Source of the DNA: Escherichia phage vB_EcoS_fKuEco01
Reading direction: 5' to 3' (one strand)
DNA: 40,825 bases
Sequence record: MT711525.1
Part shown: positions 2,793-39,909 of the stretch, piece by piece
How the letters are laid out: each line of letters begins with the position of its first letter
How positions within the stretch are numbered: position 1 is the first letter of the stretch
Notes under the pieces: generated by a model
What the model was told of the DNA's origin: nothing
Database searches by the model: none
Seen by the model: only the letters and a program-made list of their open reading frames with translations
Translations under genes and position numbers: made by a program

Positions 2793-3869
2793 ATGCTATT
2801 AACTTTAGCGCCACAGGGTTTATCTATGAGCTTACTTACATCACTAATCAGCCACCAGATATGGCTGCAACGCACCGCATCCGGTGAGGTGAAAGACCTC
2901 GCGCCGTTCATTAAGGAGATGCGGGACGAAATCAAACGGCAGGTGCTGCTATTCGGCGACGACGGTCGCAGCACTGCGCGACTGAATAAACTGTTACGTG
3001 ACCTTGAAGAAGTACTGACAGGACTTACTGGTGACTGGCAAACAAAGCTGGCAGAAGACCTCAAGGAACTGGCGGTGTATGAAGCTGAGTGGAACGTAAA
3101 GACCCTGTCCGCCAACGTAGATGCGGAATTTGTTACGCCCACCGCCGAACAGGTGTGGGCCGCTGCTGAGTTTCAGCCATTATCATTGAGTGGCAAGCCA
3201 GTTGATTTCACTAAACTGATGTCAGGTTGGGGTGAAACGGAAGTAGCACGTCTTGTAACCGGCGTTAAGATGGGCTTTGTACAAGGTCAAACAACACGGC
3301 AGATTGTTAAGAATGTAGTAGGCGCCGGTGGGCTGGCTGACATCTCTGAGCGTAACGCCGCTACCGTCATCCGCACCGCGCTGTCTCACGTGTCCAACGA
3401 AGCCCGTAACGAGACGTACCGCCAGAACGACGACATCATCGAGAAGTACGAGTGGGTGTCAACGCTTGACAGCCGCACCAGTACGATTTGCAGGGTAAGA
3501 GACGGGATGACGTGGGAAATTGGTAAGGGGCCGATGCCCCCTGCCCATCCGAACTGCCGGTCGTGCACGGCTCCGGTAATCAGTTCCGAGTTCGACTTCC
3601 TCGATAAAGGCGCAAAACGCGCGGCTAAAGGCGCGGAAGGTGGCACTCAGGTAAGCGTAGACACCACTTACTACGAGTTCCTTAAACAACAACCGGCGTG
3701 GTTTCAGGACCAGGCGCTCGGCCCGGTGCGAGGTAAGATTTTCCGTAACAGCGGTATACCGCCGGAAGAGTTTCGCGTAATATCTGTAGATGGTTTCGGG
3801 AATCCGCTCACGCTTAAGCAGATGGCGGAACTCGATAAACGTGTTGCTGATTATCTGAAAGGGGAATAA
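2793..3869 (+). CDS. head morphogenesis protein (Mu gpF / SPP1 gp7-like)
   Basis: 358-aa ORF; C-terminal AHPNCRSCT motif typical of the Mu-F family; alternative in-frame start at 2826. Confidence 0.7.
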   Translation: MLLTLAPQGLSMSLLTSLISHQIWLQRTASGEVKDLAPFIKEMRDEIKRQVLLFGDDGRSTARLNKLLRDLEEVLTGLTGDWQTKLAEDLKELAVYEAEWNVKTLSANVDAEFVTPTAEQVWAAAEFQPLSLSGKPVDFTKLMSGWGETEVARLVTGVKMGFVQGQTTRQIVKNVVGAGGLADISERNAATVIRTALSHVSNEARNETYRQNDDIIEKYEWVSTLDSRTSTICRVRDGMTWEIGKGPMPPAHPNCRSCTAPVISSEFDFLDKGAKRAAKGAEGGTQVSVDTTYYEFLKQQPAWFQDQALGPVRGKIFRNSGIPPEEFRVISVDGFGNPLTLKQMAELDKRVADYLKGE

Positions 3870-4330
3870 TGATGGGCTTTTTCAAAGTAACTGACGTACC
3901 GTCTCGTCGCGTAGTCCAGTACGCCCGCGTGTCTGGCTCTGGCGAGAACGTGGTGTTTATTGAAGACGAAAGTGTACTCGGAACACCAGTGGACGATATG
4001 CCGTTTGCGGACAAGACCGGTATTGCGCTGCCAGCGGCAGGTATGCTTTATGAGATTCAGTACCTGGCGGATGCTGGTGATGTGTATTTCTCCGTACAAC
4101 CGCAGGACGCTGAACTGGCAGACGGCAGCGCAAATATCGCTGTCGAAGTTAAGGCGGGCAAAGCACCATATGCGCTGACCTGGTACAAAGACGGGAAGGA
4201 AGTGGTAAACGCCCCGGAAGAGGCTCTGTCTCTGACGGTTAACGCAGTTGGTGAATACTTCGTTAAAGTCACTGATGCCGACGGTATAGAGGCCGTAAGT
4301 AAAGCAGCGAAGGTTACTAAGCCAGAATAA
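3869..4330 (+). CDS. hypothetical virion-associated protein, possible Ig-like domain
   Basis: 153-aa ORF, start overlaps upstream stop (TAATG); beta-rich C-terminal segment. Confidence 0.45.
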   Translation: MMGFFKVTDVPSRRVVQYARVSGSGENVVFIEDESVLGTPVDDMPFADKTGIALPAAGMLYEIQYLADAGDVYFSVQPQDAELADGSANIAVEVKAGKAPYALTWYKDGKEVVNAPEEALSLTVNAVGEYFVKVTDADGIEAVSKAAKVTKPE

Positions 4331-4334
4331 ACTG

Positions 4335-4356
4335 AAGCCCCGAAAGGGGCTTTTTA
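4335..4356 (+). terminator. rho-independent terminator
   Basis: agccccgaaaggggc hairpin followed by TTTTT. Confidence 0.7.
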
Positions 4357-4405
4357 GTGCCTGTGATTATTCCAGTTATTCCACTCAATTGTAAATGTTG
4401 GAATA

Positions 4406-4421
4406 AACTATTCGAATAGTT
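4406..4421. promoter_or_regulatory. perfect 16-bp palindrome AACTATTCGAATAGTT (operator-like), overlapping the -35 of the downstream promoter
   Basis: exact reverse-complement symmetry read from the sequence; flanked by TTATTCC/GGAATAA repeats at 4367-4406. Confidence 0.55.
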
Positions 4422-4448
4422 GACTTTTCACCAAAAATGTGCTAAGCT
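4420..4448 (+). promoter_or_regulatory. sigma70-type promoter (TTGACT-17 bp-TGcTAAGCT)
   Basis: -35 TTGACT at 4420-4425, 17-bp spacer, extended -10 TGc-TAAGCT at 4443-4448. Confidence 0.6.
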
Positions 4449-4451
4449 CCA

Positions 4452-4562
4452 CCTGAGCTTGTGAAGTATGAACAAGCGACCGCGGCGCGGGCAGGTAACG
4501 GAGCGGGACGTAAGTCCTGAGTGTAGTTACGCTGACGCGTTCGGAAGGGCCATACTCTATTG
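4452..4562 (+). ncRNA. conserved promoter-proximal RNA element, copy 1 (function unknown; candidate cis-acting leader or small RNA)
   Basis: two conserved blocks identical or near-identical to 34316-34428, separated by a divergent ~35-nt centre; 1-nt indel between copies breaks any shared reading frame. Confidence 0.5.
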
Positions 4563-4628
4563 CTTGTGTAAAAAGTAACTGGTTTACTGAGATTACGCCG
4601 TTTCTATGTTTAAATGATAAGGACTAGC

Positions 4629-4655
4629 GCCCCGCTTTAAGGCGGGGCTTTACTT
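4629..4655 (+). terminator. terminator-like hairpin (GCCCCGC-N6-GCGGGGC) with TTTACTT tail
   Basis: 7-bp GC stem followed by a U-rich tract, between the RNA element and Rz. Confidence 0.45.
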
Positions 4656-4672: not shown

Positions 4673-5059
4673 ATGAATCTTAAAGCAACTGTCGTAGCGG
4701 GAGCATGTTTCATCATCCTGGCTTACGCACACGGCATCTACCAGTATCGCAGCGGCTGGAACGGAGGCCGGGCGAATCTCGTTTCGCAGCAACAGCAGAA
4801 AGCACAGGCTGAGTTAGCTAAGAAAACACAACGGCAGCAGCAGGATGAATCGAAGGCCGCCGCCGCTGATAACGAAGGCAAGACGAAATCAGAGGTAATC
4901 ACCCGTGAAGTCGTTAAGTACATTAAAACGCCTGGCCGCAGCGTGTGCACTTTTGACCCTGAGCGCGTGCAGCTCAAGTCCCGCGCCGTCGCAAACGCCA
5001 ATTCCATCCCCGGATACGACGATGATGCAGCCGCCGTGCAAACTGGCACTGCCAAGTAA
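4673..5059 (+). CDS. Rz: i-spanin (Rz-like)
   Basis: 128 aa; N-terminal transmembrane helix then a charged, Gln/Ala-rich periplasmic domain; overlaps Rz1 in the +1 frame. Confidence 0.6.
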   Translation: MNLKATVVAGACFIILAYAHGIYQYRSGWNGGRANLVSQQQQKAQAELAKKTQRQQQDESKAAAADNEGKTKSEVITREVVKYIKTPGRSVCTFDPERVQLKSRAVANANSIPGYDDDAAAVQTGTAK

Positions 5060-5168
5060 CGACGCGGACGAGGATTTAGCTATTGACGTCCAGAACGCAG
5101 AATGTGTACGGCAACTGAGACTTAAAGTGTTCATGTTGCAGGATTACGTGAGGAATATTCTGGAATAG
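4905..5168 (+). CDS. Rz1: o-spanin (Rz1-like lipoprotein)
   Basis: 87 aa; signal peptide with lipobox LTLSAC; Pro-rich mature part; starts inside Rz in the +1 frame. Confidence 0.6.
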   Translation: MKSLSTLKRLAAACALLTLSACSSSPAPSQTPIPSPDTTMMQPPCKLALPSNDADEDLAIDVQNAECVRQLRLKVFMLQDYVRNILE

Positions 5169-5247
5169 TTGCCTTGTATGTTGGAATAATTTATTCTTGA
5201 CATGTAAATCCGGGTGGCCCGGATTCCAACGTCCAGGGGACCTACTG

Positions 5248-5880: not shown

Positions 5881-6849
5881 ATGGCTCTGTCAGATATGAA
5901 GGTTTATAACGACGATATCGTCGGTACCACTATCGAACTGCTTGGTCAGAAAACTGACCAGTTTAACGCGGCCTCCGGTGGTGCAATTGTACTGTCTACT
6001 GCCTCATGGCGCGGTGATTTCTCCCGTGAGTCTTTCTTTAACCAGATTGCCTCCGCTAAACGCCGCGTTGACCGTTACGCCGCTATCGCGTCTCAGGCAG
6101 CTACCGCGCTGACTCAGGGCGAGCATGTAGGCGTTAAAGTCGCTGGCGGCTTCGGACCGGTACTGTTCGAGCCTGCGCAAATGACCTGGCTGAACGAAGA
6201 CCCGGCAAGCGCGATTCGTGCTATTTCCGAAGGCTTCTCTGACGCACTGTTAGCGGACCAGCTCAACACCGCTGTTGGTGCCGCCGTTGCCGCGGTATCG
6301 GGTCAGACTGCACTGGTTAACGATGTATCCGCGACCGCTGGCTTGTCCCTGAACGTGCTGAACAACAGCCACGCTAAATTCGGCGACCAGTCTCAGTTGT
6401 TGGTCACTGACATCATGACCGGTGCTGCTTATCACACGCTGGTAGATAAAGCGCTGACTAACGCAAACCAGCTGTTCGTTGCCGGTAACGTTATGGTTGT
6501 CGATGTTCTCGGCAAGCGTTACGTAATTTCCGACATCCCTGCGCTGTACGAAGCTGGCACCCCGAACAAGACTAAGGTTCTGTCCGTAGTTGCGAACGGC
6601 ATCATCGTTGATAATGCTTCTGACATTATCAGCAACATTGACACCAGCAACGGTAACACCCGCATCCAGACCACCTGGCAGGCGGACTACAGCTTCGGCC
6701 TGAAACTGAAAGGCTACAGCTGGGACGTTACCAACGGCGGTAAATCTCCGCTGGACGCAGAACTGTTCACCGCGACTAACTGGGACAAAGCTGTTGCCGA
6801 GAACAAGCACACCCTCGGTACTCTGGCAATCGCCGACGCAGACCTGTAA
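5881..6849 (+). CDS. major capsid protein
   Basis: 322-aa ORF after scaffold, followed by a strong terminator; position typical. Confidence 0.75.
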   Translation: MALSDMKVYNDDIVGTTIELLGQKTDQFNAASGGAIVLSTASWRGDFSRESFFNQIASAKRRVDRYAAIASQAATALTQGEHVGVKVAGGFGPVLFEPAQMTWLNEDPASAIRAISEGFSDALLADQLNTAVGAAVAAVSGQTALVNDVSATAGLSLNVLNNSHAKFGDQSQLLVTDIMTGAAYHTLVDKALTNANQLFVAGNVMVVDVLGKRYVISDIPALYEAGTPNKTKVLSVVANGIIVDNASDIISNIDTSNGNTRIQTTWQADYSFGLKLKGYSWDVTNGGKSPLDAELFTATNWDKAVAENKHTLGTLAIADADL

Positions 6850-6906: not shown

Positions 6907-7074
6907 GTGGAAATTAAATACGTACCAATGCCAATTACCATCGAGCAGAAGCGCGAGTATAACCGTCAGGGGTTCCGTGTGGTAGATGCTCGTTTCGCAC
7001 CAGAAGGCACCGTGGTAGAATCGGCTAAAGAAGAGACACCACGCCGCCAGCGCCGGGCGAAATCAGAGGAATAA
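6907..7074 (+). CDS. small hypothetical protein
   Basis: GTG start 9 nt after AGGAG, or ATG at 6928; about 55 aa; below the ORF-track length cutoff. Confidence 0.3.
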   Translation: MEIKYVPMPITIEQKREYNRQGFRVVDARFAPEGTVVESAKEETPRRQRRAKSEE

Positions 7075-7077
7075 TTT

Positions 7078-7590
7078 ATGCCGCTAATCGTGGAAGACGG
7101 GTCGATAGTACCTAACGCTGACAGTTACGTTAGTCTGGCTGACGCCCGCGCGTTAGCGGCTAATTACGGTCTTGGGTTACCGGCAGACGATACCGCCGCA
7201 GAGGTGGCCCTGCGCAACGGCGCTACTTATGTTGGGCTTGCGGAACCTCAGATGTGCGGGCGTCGCGTATCCGCTGAACAGTCTCTGGCGTACCCACGTA
7301 CAGGAACAACACTAAACGGCTTCACCGTAGCGGATAATGTTATCCCGTCGCAGTTAATCCGGGCACAAGTAATCGCTGCGATTACGTATGGTGCGGGTAC
7401 TGATGTTCGGGCTAACTCAGATGGGCGTTCCGTGCAGACTGAGCGTGTTGAGGGTGCGGTAACAGTGACATACTTCAACAACGGCAACAGTGGCGCCACA
7501 ACCGCTATTACCGCTGCGGACGACGCATTACGCCCGTTACTGTGTGGTGGTCTTAACAATGGCTTCTCGTTTAATGTGTACCGGGGTTAA
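7078..7590 (+). CDS. hypothetical head-tail region protein
   Basis: 170-aa ORF with RBS; position between capsid and tail genes. Confidence 0.5.
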   Translation: MPLIVEDGSIVPNADSYVSLADARALAANYGLGLPADDTAAEVALRNGATYVGLAEPQMCGRRVSAEQSLAYPRTGTTLNGFTVADNVIPSQLIRAQVIAAITYGAGTDVRANSDGRSVQTERVEGAVTVTYFNNGNSGATTAITAADDALRPLLCGGLNNGFSFNVYRG

Positions 7591-12636: not shown

Positions 12637-12651
12637 TGTTGGTGTAAGTGA

Positions 12652-12680
12652 ATAGTACCCTATTATATTGGGGTGTGCAA
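12652..12680 (-). promoter_or_regulatory. early-type promoter TTGCACAC-17-TACTATTCACTTA driving the minus-strand island
   Basis: reverse complement of 12645-12690 matches the promoter units at 34582-34610 and 35875-35903. Confidence 0.55.
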
Positions 12681-13570: not shown

Positions 13571-15836
13571 TACCGCTAGCTTGATCGTACGAGTATCATC
13601 GACCGGCGTCGATAAAACCACATCACAACTGAACGGGCTTACCAAAGCCGCGGGGGCCGCCGCCGCTGCCGTTGTCAGTCTGGAAACTGCCAAACAGGTG
13701 TTCAGTGCGCTGGTGGACTCCCAGCGCAACTTCGATAAGCTGAACTCCGGCCTCATCACAATGACCGGGAGCGCTGAGAACGCGGCTAAGGCTTTCAGCG
13801 TCCTGCAACAGTTCGCAAAAGAAACCCCATATGGCCTTAACCAGGCGGTGGAAGGCTTTACTAAGCTGGTGGCCCTCGGCCTGAACCCAAGCAAAGAGGC
13901 GTTAATCTCCTACGGCAACACCGCCGCTGCGATGGGTAAAGACCTTAATCAGATGATTGAGGCTGTGGCGGACGCCAGTACATTTGAGTTTGAGCGACTG
14001 AAAGAGTTCGGTATCAAGTCTTCCCAACAGGCAGATACCGTTTCGTTCACGTTCCGCGGCGTCACCACCACGGTTAAAAAGAACTCCGAAGAGATTCAGA
14101 AATACCTGCTAAACATCGGCAACACCGATTTCGCCGGGGCGATGGAGACGCGCTCTAAGACGATAGACGGTCAGTTGTCGAGCCTGGCGGACTCCTTTGA
14201 TGGCCTTGTACTTGCGGTAGCGCAATCCGGTTTCGGCGACGCCGTAGGTGAGCAAGCCGCGAAGGCAGAAGACGCTATTTCGGCACTCACCGACGCCATT
14301 GCGTCTAATGAGATAGCCGCCACGCTCCAGGATTGGGTGACACTGTTCAATGAATCATTCAAGTTTATTTCTGATGCCTTAAACGACCTGGCATACGATA
14401 CCGAGGACAAATCCGCGGATATGTCAGACTCGCTGGGTACTATACCGGATGCTATCCGTGAATGGTTGCCTGACATCCAGCAGACGTTTCACGAGGTTAT
14501 TGCGTGGTTCCAGCGCATTGACGATTACGCCGTAGCGTTAGGTCAGACCCTCGCAGACGTGTTTGATCCGAGCAAAACGGCAGCACTCACATTTAAAAAC
14601 CTGACCGCAGAAGCTGACGCCGCATACGCCGCCAGCATAAAACGCGCCGAGGCCGAATCACAGGCCATCACCAACAGGTCTAAGCAGCGTAAGAAAGAAA
14701 TTGAGGAACAGCGCAAGCAGTACAACGAGCGTAAGAAGCAAGAAATAGACTTAGCCAGCCTTGTTAATAAAAAGGGCGGAACTGGTGGGGTGGGGACAAC
14801 CGACGATAAAGCAGCAAAAGCCGCCGCCAAGAAAGCAGAGCAATTGCGGAATCAGGCGCAAGATTACCTCGACACTTTGGCCCGTCAGAACAACGACGAG
14901 TTAAAGGCTATCGACGCGCAGGAACAGCAGAAACTGGCTAAGGCAAAAGAGTTCTACAGCCAGGGCGCGTTGTCCCTGAAAGAATATGAACAAGCTAAAA
15001 CAGCTATCGTCCTCGAAGCCGGGCAAAAACGACAAGATGAACTGGATAAACGCCAGAAAGAAGCCCAGGAAAAGCAGCAGAAAGGTGACGACTTCATGGC
15101 TCAGATTATGGGTCAGAACGCTACTGAGCTTGAGCTTCTCGACATCCAGGAACAGCAGAAGTTGGCGGTCGCAGATAAGTACCGCGAACAGGGTCTGATT
15201 AGCGAGAAGCAGTATCAGGCCGCGCTTAACGCCATCAACGAGCAGTACGCCACGAAACGTGCCGATGCAACGGCAACGGCCTTTGGTAACATGGCCTCAA
15301 ACATCGGGTCTGCGTTGGGTGAGGCTTCTGGCGCGTACAAGGCATTCGCTATCGTACAGGCCACTATCGCCACGTACACCGCAGCTATTGAGGCGTACAA
15401 GTCAACGGCAGCTATCCCTGTAGTTGGCCCGTTCCTGGCCCCTGTAGCCGCTGCCGCTGCCGTTGGTGCAGGTATGGCGCAGGTTTCCGCTATCCGGTCC
15501 GCGCGTGAACAGGGCGGACAGTTATCCGCAGGGCAGGCTTCCACCATCGCAGAACGCGGTAAACCAGAAGTTATTATGCCGGCTGGCGCATCTCGTGTTC
15601 GCACAGCACAGCAGATGAAAGAAATTATGGGGCAAAACGGGTCTTCTTCCGGCCCGTCTAATGTTACTATCGTAAACAACACGAGTTCTCAAATCGGCAA
15701 CGTATCCACTGAGCAAGATGATGAAGGCCGTTTGCGAATCATCATCGAGGAGCAGGTGGCTGCCTCTTTGCAGAACAGCAACAGCAAGATTAGCAAGGCC
15801 CGCAAAGCCACAAGAAATGCGCCGGGGTTTAAATAA
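13563..15836 (+). CDS. tape measure protein
   Basis: about 757 aa, Ala/Gln/Lys-rich with long coiled-coil segments; ATG 13563 after GAAGGTAG; track start is TTG 13548. Confidence 0.8.
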   Translation: MADTASLIVRVSSTGVDKTTSQLNGLTKAAGAAAAAVVSLETAKQVFSALVDSQRNFDKLNSGLITMTGSAENAAKAFSVLQQFAKETPYGLNQAVEGFTKLVALGLNPSKEALISYGNTAAAMGKDLNQMIEAVADASTFEFERLKEFGIKSSQQADTVSFTFRGVTTTVKKNSEEIQKYLLNIGNTDFAGAMETRSKTIDGQLSSLADSFDGLVLAVAQSGFGDAVGEQAAKAEDAISALTDAIASNEIAATLQDWVTLFNESFKFISDALNDLAYDTEDKSADMSDSLGTIPDAIREWLPDIQQTFHEVIAWFQRIDDYAVALGQTLADVFDPSKTAALTFKNLTAEADAAYAASIKRAEAESQAITNRSKQRKKEIEEQRKQYNERKKQEIDLASLVNKKGGTGGVGTTDDKAAKAAAKKAEQLRNQAQDYLDTLARQNNDELKAIDAQEQQKLAKAKEFYSQGALSLKEYEQAKTAIVLEAGQKRQDELDKRQKEAQEKQQKGDDFMAQIMGQNATELELLDIQEQQKLAVADKYREQGLISEKQYQAALNAINEQYATKRADATATAFGNMASNIGSALGEASGAYKAFAIVQATIATYTAAIEAYKSTAAIPVVGPFLAPVAAAAAVGAGMAQVSAIRSAREQGGQLSAGQASTIAERGKPEVIMPAGASRVRTAQQMKEIMGQNGSSSGPSNVTIVNNTSSQIGNVSTEQDDEGRLRIIIEEQVAASLQNSNSKISKARKATRNAPGFK

Positions 15837-25345: not shown

Positions 25346-25645
25346 TTAACTATAATAGCTCGCTATTAGGTCGTCAACCTGTTTAAACGAACCAACGATA
25401 AAAACATTTGCACCGCGTTTACGCATCCGCTCGTGCTCACGTATCTGGTGCGGGTCTGGCTTCGTGTTTTCGTCTTTCTTAACCTCGACGAACCATATGA
25501 CGCCGCCAGGGAGAATTACCAGCAGGTCGGGAGCGCCGGAGCGCCCCTCGTAGGAGAGCTTACGAACGAGGCCGCCGATGGCCTCGAATCGCTCTTTTGC
25601 GTATTTCTGTATTTTGCCTTCCGGTGTCATGAGCGCGGAATCCAA
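25346..25645 (-). CDS. VRR-NUC domain nuclease
   Basis: PD-(D/E)XK-like PDLLVIL ... FVEVKKDE arrangement; likely true start ATG at 25630. Confidence 0.65.
   Translation of the reverse strand: MDSALMTPEGKIQKYAKERFEAIGGLVRKLSYEGRSGAPDLLVILPGGVIWFVEVKKDENTKPDPHQIREHERMRKRGANVFIVGSFKQVDDLIASYYS
25349..25377 (-). promoter_or_regulatory. sigma70 promoter TTGACG-17-TATAGT
   Basis: near-consensus hexamers; lies within the 3' end of the VRR-NUC gene. Confidence 0.5.
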
Positions 25646-25982
25646 GTAAGGAAAGCCCCGCCTAGAACGGCAACGCCAACAAACTTAAAGAACAGGCCGT
25701 AACAGAACATCGCGGCTATTCCCGCACCGAGTAACAGCGCGAGCATGGTTACTATCGTCCAAAATACAAACATTGTCATAATACGCACCCCTCACGTTTC
25801 GTATGTTCAATACCACAGCGCGGGCAGATTCGACAGTCTTCTTCATAAAACCAGTAAATTTTCATTCCAGCACCCACAGATAAATTGCGATGAACATGCC
25901 CAATATGGCAACCATCATGCCGTATTGACCCTCGTGACAGTAGACACCGGCAGCAAATCCCGCCAGTACCGCGATAATCAGT

Positions 25983-28902: not shown

Positions 28903-28931
28903 ACTATAATAGCTAACTATTCAGGTGTCAA
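28903..28931 (-). promoter_or_regulatory. sigma70 promoter TTGACA-17-TATAGT with GAATAGTTAGCTAT in spacer
   Basis: consensus -35 and near-consensus -10 read on the minus strand. Confidence 0.6.
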
Positions 28932-30498: not shown

Positions 30499-30969
30499 TT
30501 ATTCTTCTTCGAAATACTTGTTCTTGATTGCTGTCAGGCGCTCCAGATACTCAGCCAGGTCTTCGTCTTTAATCGCTGCAATCTTCATCTTCTTACCGGT
30601 AAACTCTTCCAGCAGTTCGTCAGAATCGTCGCACGCGGCATCGCTTGGGCCTTCGTTAATCGCATCGTCGATAGCCTGAATCTGGTCGCGCAGAGACTGG
30701 TAATCGACTTCTTCTTTCTCTTCTTCCGGCTCTGGCGTTGGCTCCTCTACTTTAGCTTTACGCGGCTTGCGCTTCGGCTTCTCTTCTTCTGCTGGTTTAG
30801 TGTCAATGGTGTCTTCACCTTCTACCGGGATTTCTTTCGTTACTTCTTTCACAACAGTAGGCTCTATTGTTGCAGTTTCGGCAACGACAACTTGTTTCGC
30901 ACTGTTCGCAGCAATCAGTTCATGTGCAACTACGAAACGTTCCAGTAATACTAAGAATTTCTCTAACAT
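30499..30969 (-). CDS. highly acidic protein of unknown function
   Basis: 156 aa, Glu/Asp-rich with a short basic patch; first gene after promoter 31001-31030. Confidence 0.5.
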   Translation of the reverse strand: MLEKFLVLLERFVVAHELIAANSAKQVVVAETATIEPTVVKEVTKEIPVEGEDTIDTKPAEEEKPKRKPRKAKVEEPTPEPEEEKEEVDYQSLRDQIQAIDDAINEGPSDAACDDSDELLEEFTGKKMKIAAIKDEDLAEYLERLTAIKNKYFEEE

Positions 30970-31000: not shown

Positions 31001-31030
31001 ACTATAATAGCTAACTATTCATGTTGTCAA
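31001..31030 (-). promoter_or_regulatory. sigma70 promoter TTGACA-18-TATAGT with GAATAGTTAGCTAT in spacer
   Basis: consensus hexamers; divergent from the HTH gene at 31095. Confidence 0.6.
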
Positions 31031-31094
31031 TGGGCTTTTCTAAAATAATTAATATGGTACTATTCACATATCAACTGACTAAGGAGTAATTGGC

Positions 31095-31310
31095 ATGCAA
31101 CCATCTGAACTAGGTATCCGTGTAGAGCAACGCCGTAAAGAACTCGGTATCTCCCAGCGCCATCTGGCTGTCCTGGCCGGTGTTTCCCAAGGCGCGATTA
31201 ACCAGCTGGCACTTGGGGTAACTCAGGACGTCCGCCCAGCGACGCTGTTTAAACTGGCGGAAGTGCTGCAAGTAGACGCCAAGTGGCTGGCGTTGGGTGA
31301 AGGGGCTTAA
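31095..31310 (+). CDS. XRE-family helix-turn-helix transcriptional regulator (Cro/CI-like)
   Basis: 71 aa; ISQRHLAVLAGVSQGAINQL HTH; AGGAG RBS; transcribed divergently from the replication genes. Confidence 0.7.
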   Translation: MQPSELGIRVEQRRKELGISQRHLAVLAGVSQGAINQLALGVTQDVRPATLFKLAEVLQVDAKWLALGEGA

Positions 31311-33763: not shown

Positions 33764-33997
33764 CTAGCGTTGGGGTTTCTTTTGTCTACGCACCGCATTA
33801 ACCCACTCTCCTTCGCTACGGTAAAAACTGCAATCAAGGATATCCTCTATAGAAAATTTAACTATTTTAGTGGGTCCACAAAAGTTATAAGGGAAAAGTT
33901 CTACATAACACCCATCGTCGGTTATATTTGACGCAATCTTGAAATAATATTTAATGCTGCCGTCTTCGCGGAAGCTACAACCCATACGCCCAATCAT
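33764..33997 (-). CDS. hypothetical protein (AT-rich gene)
   Basis: 77-aa ORF with lower GC than its neighbours. Confidence 0.4.
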   Translation of the reverse strand: MIGRMGCSFREDGSIKYYFKIASNITDDGCYVELFPYNFCGPTKIVKFSIEDILDCSFYRSEGEWVNAVRRQKKPQR

Positions 33998-34176
33998 TTC
34001 ACGTTCTCCTTAATCCATGCTTCAACTTTATTACGGTCAAATGTTCCAGGCAAACGGCGACCCATAACCTTAATACAACAATCCGGGAATTTACCACTGC
34101 GTAACCAGTTATTAATTGTCTGACGTGTCACCCCAATACGCTCGGCTACTTCATTCTGGGTCATGTAATGTTGCAT
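33994..34176 (-). CDS. small HTH DNA-binding protein (AlpA/excisionase-like fold)
   Basis: ATG 34176 preceded by AGGAG; MTQNEVAERIGVTRQTINNW motif; track ORF extends to GTG 34248. Confidence 0.55.
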   Translation of the reverse strand: MQHYMTQNEVAERIGVTRQTINNWLRSGKFPDCCIKVMGRRLPGTFDRNKVEAWIKENVK

Positions 34177-34236: not shown

Positions 34237-34283
34237 CCAAAACACCACACAAAGTTACTAAGATGCAAAAGATGCTACTGGTA

Positions 34284-34312
34284 TTGACTTTTACTGAGAA
34301 ATATGGTAAGCT
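34284..34312 (+). promoter_or_regulatory. sigma70-type promoter (TTGACT-17 bp-TGgTAAGCT)
   Basis: same architecture and -10 as the promoter at 4420-4448. Confidence 0.6.
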
Positions 34313-34315
34313 CGT

Positions 34316-34428
34316 CCTGAGCTTGTGAAGTATGAACAAGCGACCGCGGTGCGCGGCAGGCGAAACGAGCACGTCTCGACGTGTGGAGTGAGTCTCGCTG
34401 ACGCATTCGGAAGGGCCAAAGTCTATTG
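34316..34428 (+). ncRNA. conserved promoter-proximal RNA element, copy 2
   Basis: shares conserved 5' and 3' blocks with 4452-4562; central segment differs. Confidence 0.5.
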
Positions 34429-34499
34429 TAATTCCCGCCTAATTATCTAAGTTACTGATTTGCCGTAGGTTAGAACCGCCAGCTCACTCACTCACTCTT

Positions 34500-34530
34500 G
34501 GTGCCTTCGGCACCACGTTCGTTTCGTTTC
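34500..34530 (+). terminator. terminator-like hairpin GGTGCC-UUCG-GCACC with U-rich tail
   Basis: tetraloop hairpin followed by acgttcgtttcgtttcg. Confidence 0.4.
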
Positions 34531-34581: not shown

Positions 34582-34610
34582 TTGCACACCCCAACATAAT
34601 AGGATACTAT
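34582..34610 (+). promoter_or_regulatory. early-type promoter TTGCAC-17-TACTAT with conserved leader
   Basis: near-identical unit at 35875-35903 and, on the minus strand, 12652-12680. Confidence 0.55.
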
Positions 34611-34644
34611 TCACTTATCGAAACGAGACAGAGGAGTGAGGGTT

Positions 34645-35874: not shown

Positions 35875-35903
35875 TTGCACACTGGGATAGAATAGGCTAC
35901 TAT
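35875..35903 (+). promoter_or_regulatory. early-type promoter TTGCAC-17-TACTAT with conserved leader
   Basis: matches the unit at 34582-34610 including the AACGAGAGGAG leader. Confidence 0.55.
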
Positions 35904-35933
35904 TCATTTACACAAACGAGAGGAGAGACAGAG

Positions 35934-36071: not shown

Positions 36072-36609
36072 CAAAAACGAAATATTTGAGTACCTGATCG
36101 ACCAGCTACGGCAGCAGGTAAATAACAGCCGGAGCGAAGACCTGGCGCATGAGGTGCAGTCACTTAAGAATCAGTTACGTGATGCGTCGGCGCAGATTAA
36201 GGAGTTGCGGGAAGACAACATTAAGAAATCTGAGCACATATCGCACCTGACAGGGCAAGTTAAGGAGTTGCATCTGGCATTGGTCGAGGCTACTGGTGAC
36301 GTGGAGGCATACAAACTTATCCGCAAAGGTGCGTACGGTTCGGAGCAATCTGGTTGCCGAAAAGAAGATACGCAGGAATGTGACCACAATTGGATTATCG
36401 CTCCAGGATTGTTTATTGCCGAAGGCCACAAGGACAACGTGCCCGGTAGCCGGTTTTGCTGCGAATGCGGCAAGCGTGAGTGGGACGGACTTGAGTATGG
36501 GCCAACAGCCTGTACACGGGAGTGCAAACACAGTTTCTATTATGTAATAACAGATGGCTCCGCGCCGTTCGGTACGAAAGTATGTAAAACGTGCGGGGAA
36601 TACTTCTGA
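36064..36609 (+). CDS. coiled-coil protein with C-terminal Cys-rich zinc-ribbon-like region
   Basis: N-terminal heptad-rich half; C-terminal CDHNW, CCECG, CTRECKH and CKTCG cysteine groups. Confidence 0.5.
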   Translation: MSNKNEIFEYLIDQLRQQVNNSRSEDLAHEVQSLKNQLRDASAQIKELREDNIKKSEHISHLTGQVKELHLALVEATGDVEAYKLIRKGAYGSEQSGCRKEDTQECDHNWIIAPGLFIAEGHKDNVPGSRFCCECGKREWDGLEYGPTACTRECKHSFYYVITDGSAPFGTKVCKTCGEYF

Positions 36610-36812
36610 TGACCAGCATCTTATTTATCTGGGTACTGTCGGCGGGCCAGATGCAACTAGCGGCATCGGAAACGTTTTATTCGATGGAGGCGTGCCAGTC
36701 CGCGGCACGCGCCGCAGAGAACGCACACTTCCTGTTTCAGGGTGACAAGCCCAACGATTCAGAGGTACGCGCTATCTGCTCACCTAAGCGACTTGGGAAA
36801 CAGGAGAAGTGA
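36609..36812 (+). CDS. small secreted or membrane-anchored protein
   Basis: 67 aa with hydrophobic N-terminal signal-like segment and two Cys. Confidence 0.4.
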   Translation: MTSILFIWVLSAGQMQLAASETFYSMEACQSAARAAENAHFLFQGDKPNDSEVRAICSPKRLGKQEK

Positions 36813-38522: not shown

Positions 38523-38544
38523 ATCTGTCTTCTGTAATGGCTAG

Positions 38545-38573
38545 TTGACTATTACCTTAGACCCTATTATATT
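38545..38573 (+). promoter_or_regulatory. sigma70 promoter TTGACT-17-TATATT
   Basis: near-consensus hexamers upstream of the ORF at 38607. Confidence 0.55.
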
Positions 38574-39505: not shown

Positions 39506-39676
39506 ATGTTCAGTGACATCAACGCAGCAATCGAAGAGGCAATCTGGCGTCGTTACAACGGCGAGCAACAACGGCACTTTTGCCTGGTGCAACGCGGTAA
39601 CATGGTTGCCGTAGTGCAGGACCGCGATAACAAATATCCGAATGCGATGTGGACAACGAGGAATTTCTTAGGATGA
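39506..39676 (+). CDS. hypothetical protein
   Basis: 56-aa ORF. Confidence 0.35.
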   Translation: MFSDINAAIEEAIWRRYNGEQQRHFCLVQRGNMVAVVQDRDNKYPNAMWTTRNFLG

Positions 39677-39909
39677 TTACCAGCATTCCAAACCTGATTA
39701 AAGAATACGGCACGATGGCTGAGACATGCCGACAAACCGGCATCAACGAAATGACGGTTGCCAAGTACAGCAAAGACGTTAACTGCGAGCGCCATGTAAT
39801 TTATAACAATCGTCTGATGACGCACGTTAAGACAAGCCCGGTGTTATTCACGCGCAGGGGTATTACTAAAACAGAGCAACGTATTGCTAAAGAGGGGAGT
39901 GGGGAATGA
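39673..39909 (+). CDS. hypothetical protein
   Basis: ATG overlapping upstream stop; track ORF starts at GTG 39649. Confidence 0.45.
   Translation: MITSIPNLIKEYGTMAETCRQTGINEMTVAKYSKDVNCERHVIYNNRLMTHVKTSPVLFTRRGITKTEQRIAKEGSGE

Follow-up and report, generated by a model that had tools for sequence, protein, structure and literature searches.

The closest described counterparts of the locus examined here are a repeated element of Kagunavirus genomes and the operators of lambdoid phages. In the Kagunavirus fBC-Eco01, seven copies of an element with the consensus tgAATAGTa-ccTATTat-T were detected by PHIRE and called phage RNA polymerase promoters (PMC9825357). The stretch of DNA analyzed here, referred to as the window, was the complete 40,825-nucleotide (nt) genome of Escherichia phage vB_EcoS_fKuEco01 (MT711525.1), a Kagunavirus (Guernseyvirinae siphovirus), and the feature under study was a cluster of short repeats that runs into the -35 hexamer of a predicted promoter, P_A. 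The region from 4367 to 4429 is best explained as the upstream control region of P_A, in which two unrelated protein-binding motifs (M1 and M2) would abut. M1, a 16-base-pair (bp) gapped palindrome, is the same repeated element as in fBC-Eco01 and occurs in about seven copies per genome. Unlike the assignment of that element to a phage RNA polymerase, the dyad symmetry of M1 and its position inside sigma-70-type promoters fit an operator, and no RNA polymerase gene was present in the annotation of a close relative. Like the lambdoid Cro/CI operators (434 Cro; P22 C2/Cro), M1 is a dyad of 16 bp that recurs over core promoters, the candidate regulator's own among them, and its layout of two 6-bp arms around 4 bp resembles that of the P22 operators. 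Unlike the lambdoid repressor systems, the phage is virulent and lacks a CI/Cro pair and a tripartite OR/OL, and its M1 sites are scattered over at least nine promoters in both gene blocks. M1 therefore appears better read as a Cro-type operator over nearly all promoters than as the "phage RNA polymerase promoter" of the Kagunavirus papers, a correction to the literature on a genus of widely used therapeutic phages.

The cluster sits in a 342-bp gap between a Hoc-like head-decoration gene (3869 to 4330) and the spanin genes (4673 to 5168). The region was 100% identical to that of Escherichia phage vB_EcoS-UTI89UKE1 and had 95 to 99% identity in roughly 180 records of phages of E. coli and Salmonella; a near-identical relative and its annotation served as the gene-content reference. 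Nothing similar to the region was found in 5,426 E. coli genomes, and a host origin was rejected on that ground. Conservation among close relatives was assessed in 30 distinct sequences from viral contigs that carry the same version of the region as the window (type 1), and distant comparisons drew on Jerseyvirus NC_073178, Cornellvirus NC_021775, and viral contigs searched by sequence pattern. The motifs with their statistics and conservation, and their placement against promoter consensus sequences, were computed; the transcription start, the binding proteins, and the sign of regulation are deductions. The elements of the cluster and its promoter were as follows.

4367-4374 and 4376-4383, plus strand: direct repeats TTATTCCA, found by sequence inspection.
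4399-4406: inverted copy TGGAATAA, found by sequence inspection.
4406-4421: perfect 16-bp palindrome AACTATTCGAATAGTT, where an M2 pentamer (TATTC) meets the left arm of M1 (GAATAG).
4414-4429: M1-type operator GAATAG-TTGA-CTTTTC (GAATAGTTGACTTTTC) over the -35 hexamer, matching at 11 of 12 arm positions.
4420-4448, plus strand: predicted promoter P_A, with -35 TTGACT (4420-4425), a 17-bp spacer, and an extended -10 TGcTAAGCT (4440-4448); predicted start at about 4455.

An initial annotation of the window had described these repeats, the palindrome, and the -35 hexamer, all of which were present in the sequence, and had proposed a common regulator binding site with ACTATTC/GAATAGT as its half-site. 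The six further ACTATTC/GAATAGT sites that it listed were real (5163, 12650, 28916, 31014, 34606, and 35899, some of them 1 to 3 nt from where they had been placed), and a seventh was found at 31059. The enrichment predicted for the ACTATTC heptamer was borne out, with 9 occurrences against 3.9 expected, a count reached in 2 of 100 shuffles. One perfect palindrome of at least 16 bp was observed, compared to 0.65 expected per simulated genome, and 47% of simulations contained one; the palindrome by itself was at chance level and unremarkable. Two clusters of at least three GGAATA/TATTCC hexamers within 50 bp were observed (one such cluster in 2 of 300 simulations, two in none of 300), as were six copies of GAATAG-N4-CTATTC with at most one mismatch (0.07 expected). 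The hexamer clusters and the gapped palindrome were strongly nonrandom.

Among the 30 close relatives, positions 4368 to 4382 and 4388 to 4431 were near-invariant. Highly polymorphic positions were 4383, 4385, and 4386 as well as 4432, 4433, 4439, and 4442 in the promoter spacer, with both P_A hexamers invariant, as expected of a real promoter. The sequence to the left of 4368 was unrelated between subgroups of these relatives, so that the conserved block starts at the first TATTCC. The near-invariance of the cluster implies that it is under purifying selection, and conservation of this kind indicates that it is functional.

M1 has the form (T/G)AATAG-N4-CTATT(A/C) in promoter orientation, with conserved arms and a variable central 4 bp, and was the most frequent gapped palindrome both in the window and in a Jerseyvirus genome. 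Including the copy at 4414-4429, it shows the dyad of a Cro/CI-type operator (14 to 18 bp, conserved outer half-sites, variable center). The copies overlapped core elements of promoters predicted by consensus, namely, the -10 element or spacer in two promoter families and the -35 hexamer at 4420 and 38545. In a scan of intergenic regions, M1 was found in almost every credible sigma-70 promoter, the exceptions being P_B, the promoter of a paralogous RNA, and, weakly, P_E2, a candidate scaffold/capsid promoter. The remaining M1 sites were as follows.

12650-12665, minus strand: core of leftward promoter TTGCAC-N17-TACTAT.
25353-25368, minus strand: core of leftward promoter TTGACG-N17-TATAGT.
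28907-28922, minus strand: core of leftward promoter TTGACA-N17-TATAGT.
31005-31020, minus strand: core of leftward promoter TTGACA-N18-TATAGT, divergent from a helix-turn-helix (HTH) gene.
31050-31065, plus strand: two mismatches, covering the -10 (TACTAT) of the promoter of this HTH gene.
34597-34612, plus strand: core of rightward early promoter TTGCAC-N17-TACTAT.
35890-35905, plus strand: perfect copy GAATAGGCTACTATTC, core of rightward promoter TTGCAC-N17-TACTAT.
38539-38554, plus strand: GGCTAG-TTGA-CTATTA, covering the -35 of a promoter (TTGACT-N17-TATATT) that reads toward the terminase and head genes.

In the TTGCAC-N17-TACTAT family (12650 on the minus strand, 34597, and 35890), the right M1 arm supplies the -10 element, and in the exclusively leftward TTGACR-N17/18-TATAGT family (25353, 28907, and 31005), M1 fills the spacer. 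The sites at 4414-4429 and 38539-38554 share a third design, with M1 over the -35 hexamer. Most Kagunavirus sequences read GACTAG-TTGA-CTATTA at the 38539 site (GGCTAG in the window), and Jerseyvirus sequences read TAATAG-TTGA-CTAGTA. Most Kagunavirus and all listed Jerseyvirus copies match at 11 of 12 positions, with the mismatch in opposite arms, and the window copy matches at 10 of 12; this pattern suggests that selection maintains the site. Every other ACTATTC site except that at 5163 formed one arm of an M1 copy. The 5163 copy belongs to an M2 array, and only the left M1 arm matches there (three mismatches). The proposal of a common site at early and late promoters thus held insofar as a palindromic site recurs in both gene blocks, one copy of it over this -35 hexamer, and failed in the identity of the site, which is GAATAG-N4-CTATTC and not the perfect palindrome. 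Nor is ACTATTC a uniform half-site, since it forms part of the -10 element (TACTATtc) in one family of promoters and falls in the spacer of a second.

An M1-like site, TTATAGTATGCTATTA, was also found at 2786-2801, directly after a terminator (2767-2784) and upstream of a MuF-like head gene. It is identical in Jerseyvirus NC_073178 (4115), and no promoter was recognizable there.

M2 consists of GGAATA/TATTCC hexamers that form only two arrays in the window, E1 (4368-4413) at P_A and E2 (5152-5196) at the scaffold/capsid promoter. The TTATTCCA repeats had been grouped with the recurrent half-site and are now assigned to this separate motif, of which the conserved unit in E1 is TATTCC; the first T of TTATTCCA varies among relatives. 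The parts of the arrays and the second promoter were as follows.

4368-4382, plus strand: M2 direct repeat TATTCC-AGT-TATTCC with a 9-bp period, the left part of E1; invariant across three genera.
4383-4399, plus strand: A/T-rich E1 spacer containing the polymorphic positions 4383, 4385, and 4386; AATTGTAAATGT within it is conserved in type 1 and partly in Jerseyvirus.
4400-4413, plus strand: M2 inverted repeat GGAATA-AAC-TATTC, which makes up the right part of E1 and supplies the left half of the palindrome; center at about -48 from the predicted start.
5152-5196, plus strand: array E2, GGAATA-TTCT-GGAATA(G), a spacer, and GGAATA-ATT-TATTC, at the scaffold/capsid promoter.
5169-5197, plus strand: candidate promoter P_E2, with -35 TTGCCT, a 17-bp spacer, and -10 TATTCT.

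The window has just two copies of the pattern GAATA-N3-TATTC, one at 4401 and the other, within E2, at 5184. The inverted repeat at 4400-4413 was conserved in Jerseyvirus NC_073178 and Cornellvirus NC_021775. The first E2 hexamer lies inside the end of the o-spanin open reading frame (ORF) and is absent in Cornellvirus. M2 hexamers fall within the spacer and -10 element of P_E2, and they also fall within the P_A spacer of Cornellvirus-type sequences. Downstream of P_E2 are a covarying 5' hairpin (5207-5225) and then the scaffold gene (5248). This hairpin, at the predicted 5' end of the scaffold/capsid mRNA, has a conserved core (CCGGGTGGCCCGG) with flanks that covary between genera (AAATCCGGG...CCCGGATT versus ACACCGGG...CCCGGTGT) and is probably a 5' stabilizer or processing site.

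Comparison across genera separated three versions of the region at P_A.

Type 1 (the window together with further Kagunavirus and some phages of Salmonella): inverted repeat followed by GAATAG; -35 hexamer TTGACT.
Type 2 (the majority of Jerseyvirus): inverted repeat followed by AAAAAG; -35 hexamer TAGACT or TATACT.
Type 3 (Cornellvirus-like): inverted repeat followed by AAAAAG or CAAAAG; -35 hexamer TGGATT or TGGACT.

All three types contain TATTCC-N3-TATTCC, an A/T-rich spacer of 16 to 17 bp, and GGAATA-N3-TATTC. In E1, 23 of 23 hexamer positions were identical in the three genera, with differences in the spacers, the N3 bases, and the upstream flank; the genes flanking E1 were only 59 to 73% identical in DNA. 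The E2 core was 87 to 95% identical, and the array, though not every hexamer of it, was kept in Kagunavirus, Jerseyvirus, and Cornellvirus. Cornellvirus has no M1 and instead carries TATTA-N6-TAATA, i.e., TATTA(G/C)-N4-(G/C)TAATA, embedded in promoters (9 sites compared to 0.73 expected); compared with Kagunavirus and Jerseyvirus, this palindrome amounts to a natural switch of specificity. Since Cornellvirus keeps M2 without M1, the two motifs are separate systems. The sequence upstream of P_A did not behave as an UP element: positions -41 to -36 read AAAAAG in Jerseyvirus and Cornellvirus and GAATAG in the window, and the conserved upstream positions were discrete hexamers rather than A-tracts.

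These comparisons bear directly on the perfect palindrome, which the initial annotation had offered as the shared site. As an operator of the common regulator, with ACTATTC as its half-site at all promoters, it would account for its own near-invariance in the 30 close relatives, for its position against the -35 hexamer (with which its right edge shares 2 bp), and for the GAATAG/CTATTC hexamer that it has in common with the recurrent sites. Its arms are everted and gapless (CTATTC-GAATAG), however, whereas elsewhere they are always arranged as GAATAG-N4-CTATTC; only 6 of 12 arm positions match in register, with four mismatches in the 10 core positions of the M1 register, so that it lacks the Cro/CI half-site arrangement, and one rigid HTH dimer could not read both arrangements. 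The right half, GAATAG, is an M1 arm confined to type 1 and differs by two substitutions from the AAAAAG of the other two genera; Jerseyvirus type 2 and Cornellvirus read TATTC-AAAAAG where the window reads TATTC-GAATAG and so keep the left half without the right. Together with the chance expectation given above, these points make a palindromic operator very improbable. The perfect palindrome appears instead to have arisen by accident where the last M2 pentamer meets the left arm of M1.

Barely credible is a role of the repeats as nucleic acid structure, with hairpins or a cruciform formed from the TTATTCCA...TGGAATAA arms and the palindrome. A pair of neighboring hairpins can be drawn, and one relative carries a paired change (TTATTCT...AGAATAA). 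The fold was no better than those of shuffled sequences (z = -1.24; 25 of 200 shuffles folded as well or better), pairing was broken in other relatives, the first TATTCC has no partner and yet is equally conserved, and three E2 hexamers lie in one orientation.

The candidate M1-binding protein is encoded next to two M1 sites.

31095-31310, plus strand: 71-amino-acid XRE/HTH_3 protein (Pfam), with phage 434 Cro as its closest solved relative; candidate M1 repressor.

The protein aligned with 434 Cro over its full length (E = 1.8e-6), and P22 C2 matched as well. The promoter region of its gene is bordered by the M1 sites at 31005 and 31050, one of which covers the gene's own -10 element. Two phage HTH proteins had been named in the initial annotation as possible regulators, and this one gained support from the position of its gene, which adjoins two copies of the site as an autoregulated repressor gene would. 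An HTH_3 dimer most likely binds M1 and blocks RNA polymerase. The protein was 41% identical to its counterpart in Cornellvirus, where the operator is different, and about 50% identical to that in Jerseyvirus, where M1 is kept despite a different recognition helix.

On the opposite strand, the strong leftward promoter at 31030 is followed first by a gene (30499-30969, minus strand) for a very acidic protein of 156 amino acids that belongs to no Pfam family, is conserved across the three genera, and could be a DNA mimic or a nucleoid-protein inhibitor.

Downstream of the cluster, P_A is predicted to drive a structured RNA.

4455-4650, plus strand: RNA-A, structured noncoding RNA of about 200 nt, ending at a terminator (4629-4648) directly upstream of the spanin genes.

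A paralog, RNA-B (about 34319-34520), also has a terminator, and its promoter P_B (34284-34313) has the same core (TTGACT-N17-TGnTAAGCT) and no upstream array. The two RNAs share a 5' domain of about 100 nt, predicted to fold into multiple helices with five compensatory pairs among eleven type-1 variants; the consensus structure comes from the type-1 set only, as a cross-genus MAFFT alignment gave no usable consensus. An annotated 36-codon ORF (4468-4578) is out of frame in RNA-B, so conservation acts at the RNA level, and the GenBank "hypothetical protein" at these positions is probably not a gene. RNA-A had no Rfam match at gathering or permissive thresholds, and ARAGORN gave no tRNA or tmRNA match. 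Transcript mapping for Guernseyvirinae was not found in the literature, one of the searches being too broad to be useful. Diverged versions of the RNA were seen in Jerseyvirus NC_073178 (about 6910-7085) and Cornellvirus NC_021775 (about 25486-25700). Just upstream of the P_B -35 hexamer is a direct repeat, AAGATGC-AA-AAGATGC (34260-34278), which is conserved in relatives and may be a site for another factor.

In the reading favored overall, P_A is a strong sigma-70 promoter under negative control, through M1 by a Cro-like repressor and through M2 by a second factor; this reading is given about an even chance of being correct as a whole. P_A would make the structured RNA of about 200 nt and by read-through would probably feed the spanin genes. 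A Cro-like HTH dimer on M1 over the -35 hexamer would exclude RNA polymerase, and E1 and its twin E2 would bind a second, multimeric factor, possibly a conserved phage HTH protein, for example, a NinH/Fis-like one, or a host nucleoid protein, acting negatively on P_A and P_E2. Negative control is favored for two reasons: the P_A core appears self-sufficient, because P_B has the same core without an array, yet E1 is nearly invariant in the 30 type-1 sequences; and M2 hexamers sit in the P_E2 spacer and -10 element and in the type-3 P_A spacer.

In a contrary arrangement, E1, with or without the palindrome, would be an upstream activator platform, a phage late activator on M2 with a class II-like dyad near -41.5 switching on P_A and P_E2. 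Phage late promoters are commonly activator dependent, and the palindrome center (4413/4414) lies at about -41.5 from a start at 4455 that is itself predicted from the -10 position only. Weak -35 hexamers at P_A in Jerseyvirus (TATACT/TAGACT) and Cornellvirus (TGGATT/TGGACT) and at P_E2 (TTGCCT) would also suit an activator at M2. The window P_A, however, has TTGACT and an extended -10 element rather than a poor -35, and its core stands alone at P_B; the M2 hexamers over the spacer and -10 element at P_E2 and Cornellvirus-type P_A are in repressor positions, and the -41.5 dyad is missing in the very genera with weak -35 hexamers. Activation through E1 is therefore considered rather unlikely.

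Besides these weak -35 hexamers, several observations weigh against dual negative control. P_B lacks the left M1 arm but has the same right arm as P_A (CTTTTC), so that part of the 11-of-12 match is inherited promoter sequence. GAATAG-TTG adjoins the -35 hexamer at P_E2 too, and the right half of the palindrome could for that reason be a fifth M2 pentamer. Conservation of the first E2 hexamer may reflect coding of the o-spanin C terminus. The recognition-helix residues of the HTH_3 protein do not track operator type, since Kagunavirus and Jerseyvirus share M1 and differ in the helix, and the phyletic pattern of the other HTH protein (HTH_17, 33994-34176), present in Kagunavirus and Jerseyvirus and not found in Cornellvirus, fits M1.

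For the M2 factor of the favored reading, one phage candidate was found.

39649-39909, plus strand: NinH/Fis-like HTH protein, with a Pfam score below the family threshold.

With the HTH_3 protein set aside, no other small DNA-binding candidate was conserved across the three genera; the NinH/Fis-like protein was 59 to 67% identical between them, and much of its HTH region was conserved. The lambda NinH protein is a DNA-binding, DNA-bending dimer (PMC7166090). A host nucleoid protein is equally possible as the M2 binder, given hexamers that stay invariant as the phage regulators diverge. The HTH_17 protein was rejected for this role, being absent from Cornellvirus, which keeps M2. A 73-amino-acid protein (36591-36812) was rejected as a regulator; it resembles a small membrane or secreted protein.

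A fuller version of the host alternative, in which a host nucleoid-associated or global regulator (for example, by Lrp-like wrapping) on the M2 arrays would silence or tune the two morphogenesis promoters according to host state, is considered distinctly unlikely. The invariance of the hexamers in three genera with diverged regulators favors it, as would an apparent likeness to E. coli Lrp sites: GGAATA/TATTCT is one base off the half-site AGAATA/TATTCT (5 of 6 for GGAATA), the hexamer pairs are phased at 32 bp in E1 and about 30 bp in E2, and the spacers are A/T rich. Unlike Lrp sites, the M2 hexamers are spaced by N3 within a pair, 2 bp longer than the N1 of the 15-bp Lrp site; E. coli genomes contained no similar region, and the conserved NinH-like protein is an equally good candidate. 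The consensus sequences of other host factors were compared by eye, and the DnaA box, IHF, Fis, CRP, FNR, ArcA, CpxR, TyrR, IclR, NanR (GGTATA repeats), the RcsAB box, Tus/Ter, and TrpR did not fit the conserved positions; several partial matches to host-factor consensus sequences fell at positions that vary between genera. A leftward promoter within E1 (TTTACA-N18-AATAAT with a TG extension) was not retained, its -10 element being lost in most relatives; in Cornellvirus it may drive an inserted leftward gene.

It is improbable that E1 and E2, together with the two paralogous RNAs, form an undescribed late-gene switch of all Guernseyvirinae, for example, a Fis-like or host nucleoprotein complex gating a promoter whose RNA acts on transcription (put-like or 6S-like). 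The region overall is standard phage regulatory architecture and not a new principle. Its M2 arrays mark two promoters upstream of morphogenesis genes and offer a handle on the factor that times late expression in Guernseyvirinae, and the structured RNA gains a defined regulatory setting.

Other features of the window and its relatives were noted. The left boundary of the regulatory region is a strong terminator.

4335-4352, both strands: bidirectional intrinsic terminator, ending the Hoc-like gene.

Identical 18-nt terminator hairpins (AGCCCCGAAAGGGGCTTT) occur at the end of the portal gene (2767-2784) and at the end of the Hoc-like gene (4337-4354). The major capsid protein (5881-6849) had no tblastn homolog (E < 1e-3) in the compared Jerseyvirus or Cornellvirus genome, and neighboring genes were 54 to 89% identical to those of the same genomes; a capsid gene without a homolog amid conserved neighbors points to capsid-gene replacement. 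In Cornellvirus NC_021775, positions 13750-14039, beside a helicase-primase gene, contain about six copies of a G-rich iteron-like repeat, GGGGGAGA, and two of GTGAATAGTTAT and are probably a replication origin.

Beyond the Cro/CI operators, the locus can be set beside two further known systems. Like the lambda PR'-6S RNA-tR' leader, it combines a strong, constitutive-looking promoter with a terminated transcript of about 200 nt directly upstream of lysis (spanin) and head genes. Unlike the PR' module, its arrays lie upstream of the -35 hexamer and not between the -35 and -10 elements, and no Q-family protein was found by Pfam among 20 of the window's proteins. RNA-A also differs from the lambda 6S leader in having a conserved structure and an unlinked paralog. 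Like the multisite arrays of phi29 p4 and cooperative lambda CI, E1 and E2 are short repeats at whole-helical-turn spacing, upstream of and within two promoters that drive different gene blocks; they differ from those arrays in the hexamer sequence, the mixture of direct and inverted repeats, and the binding protein.

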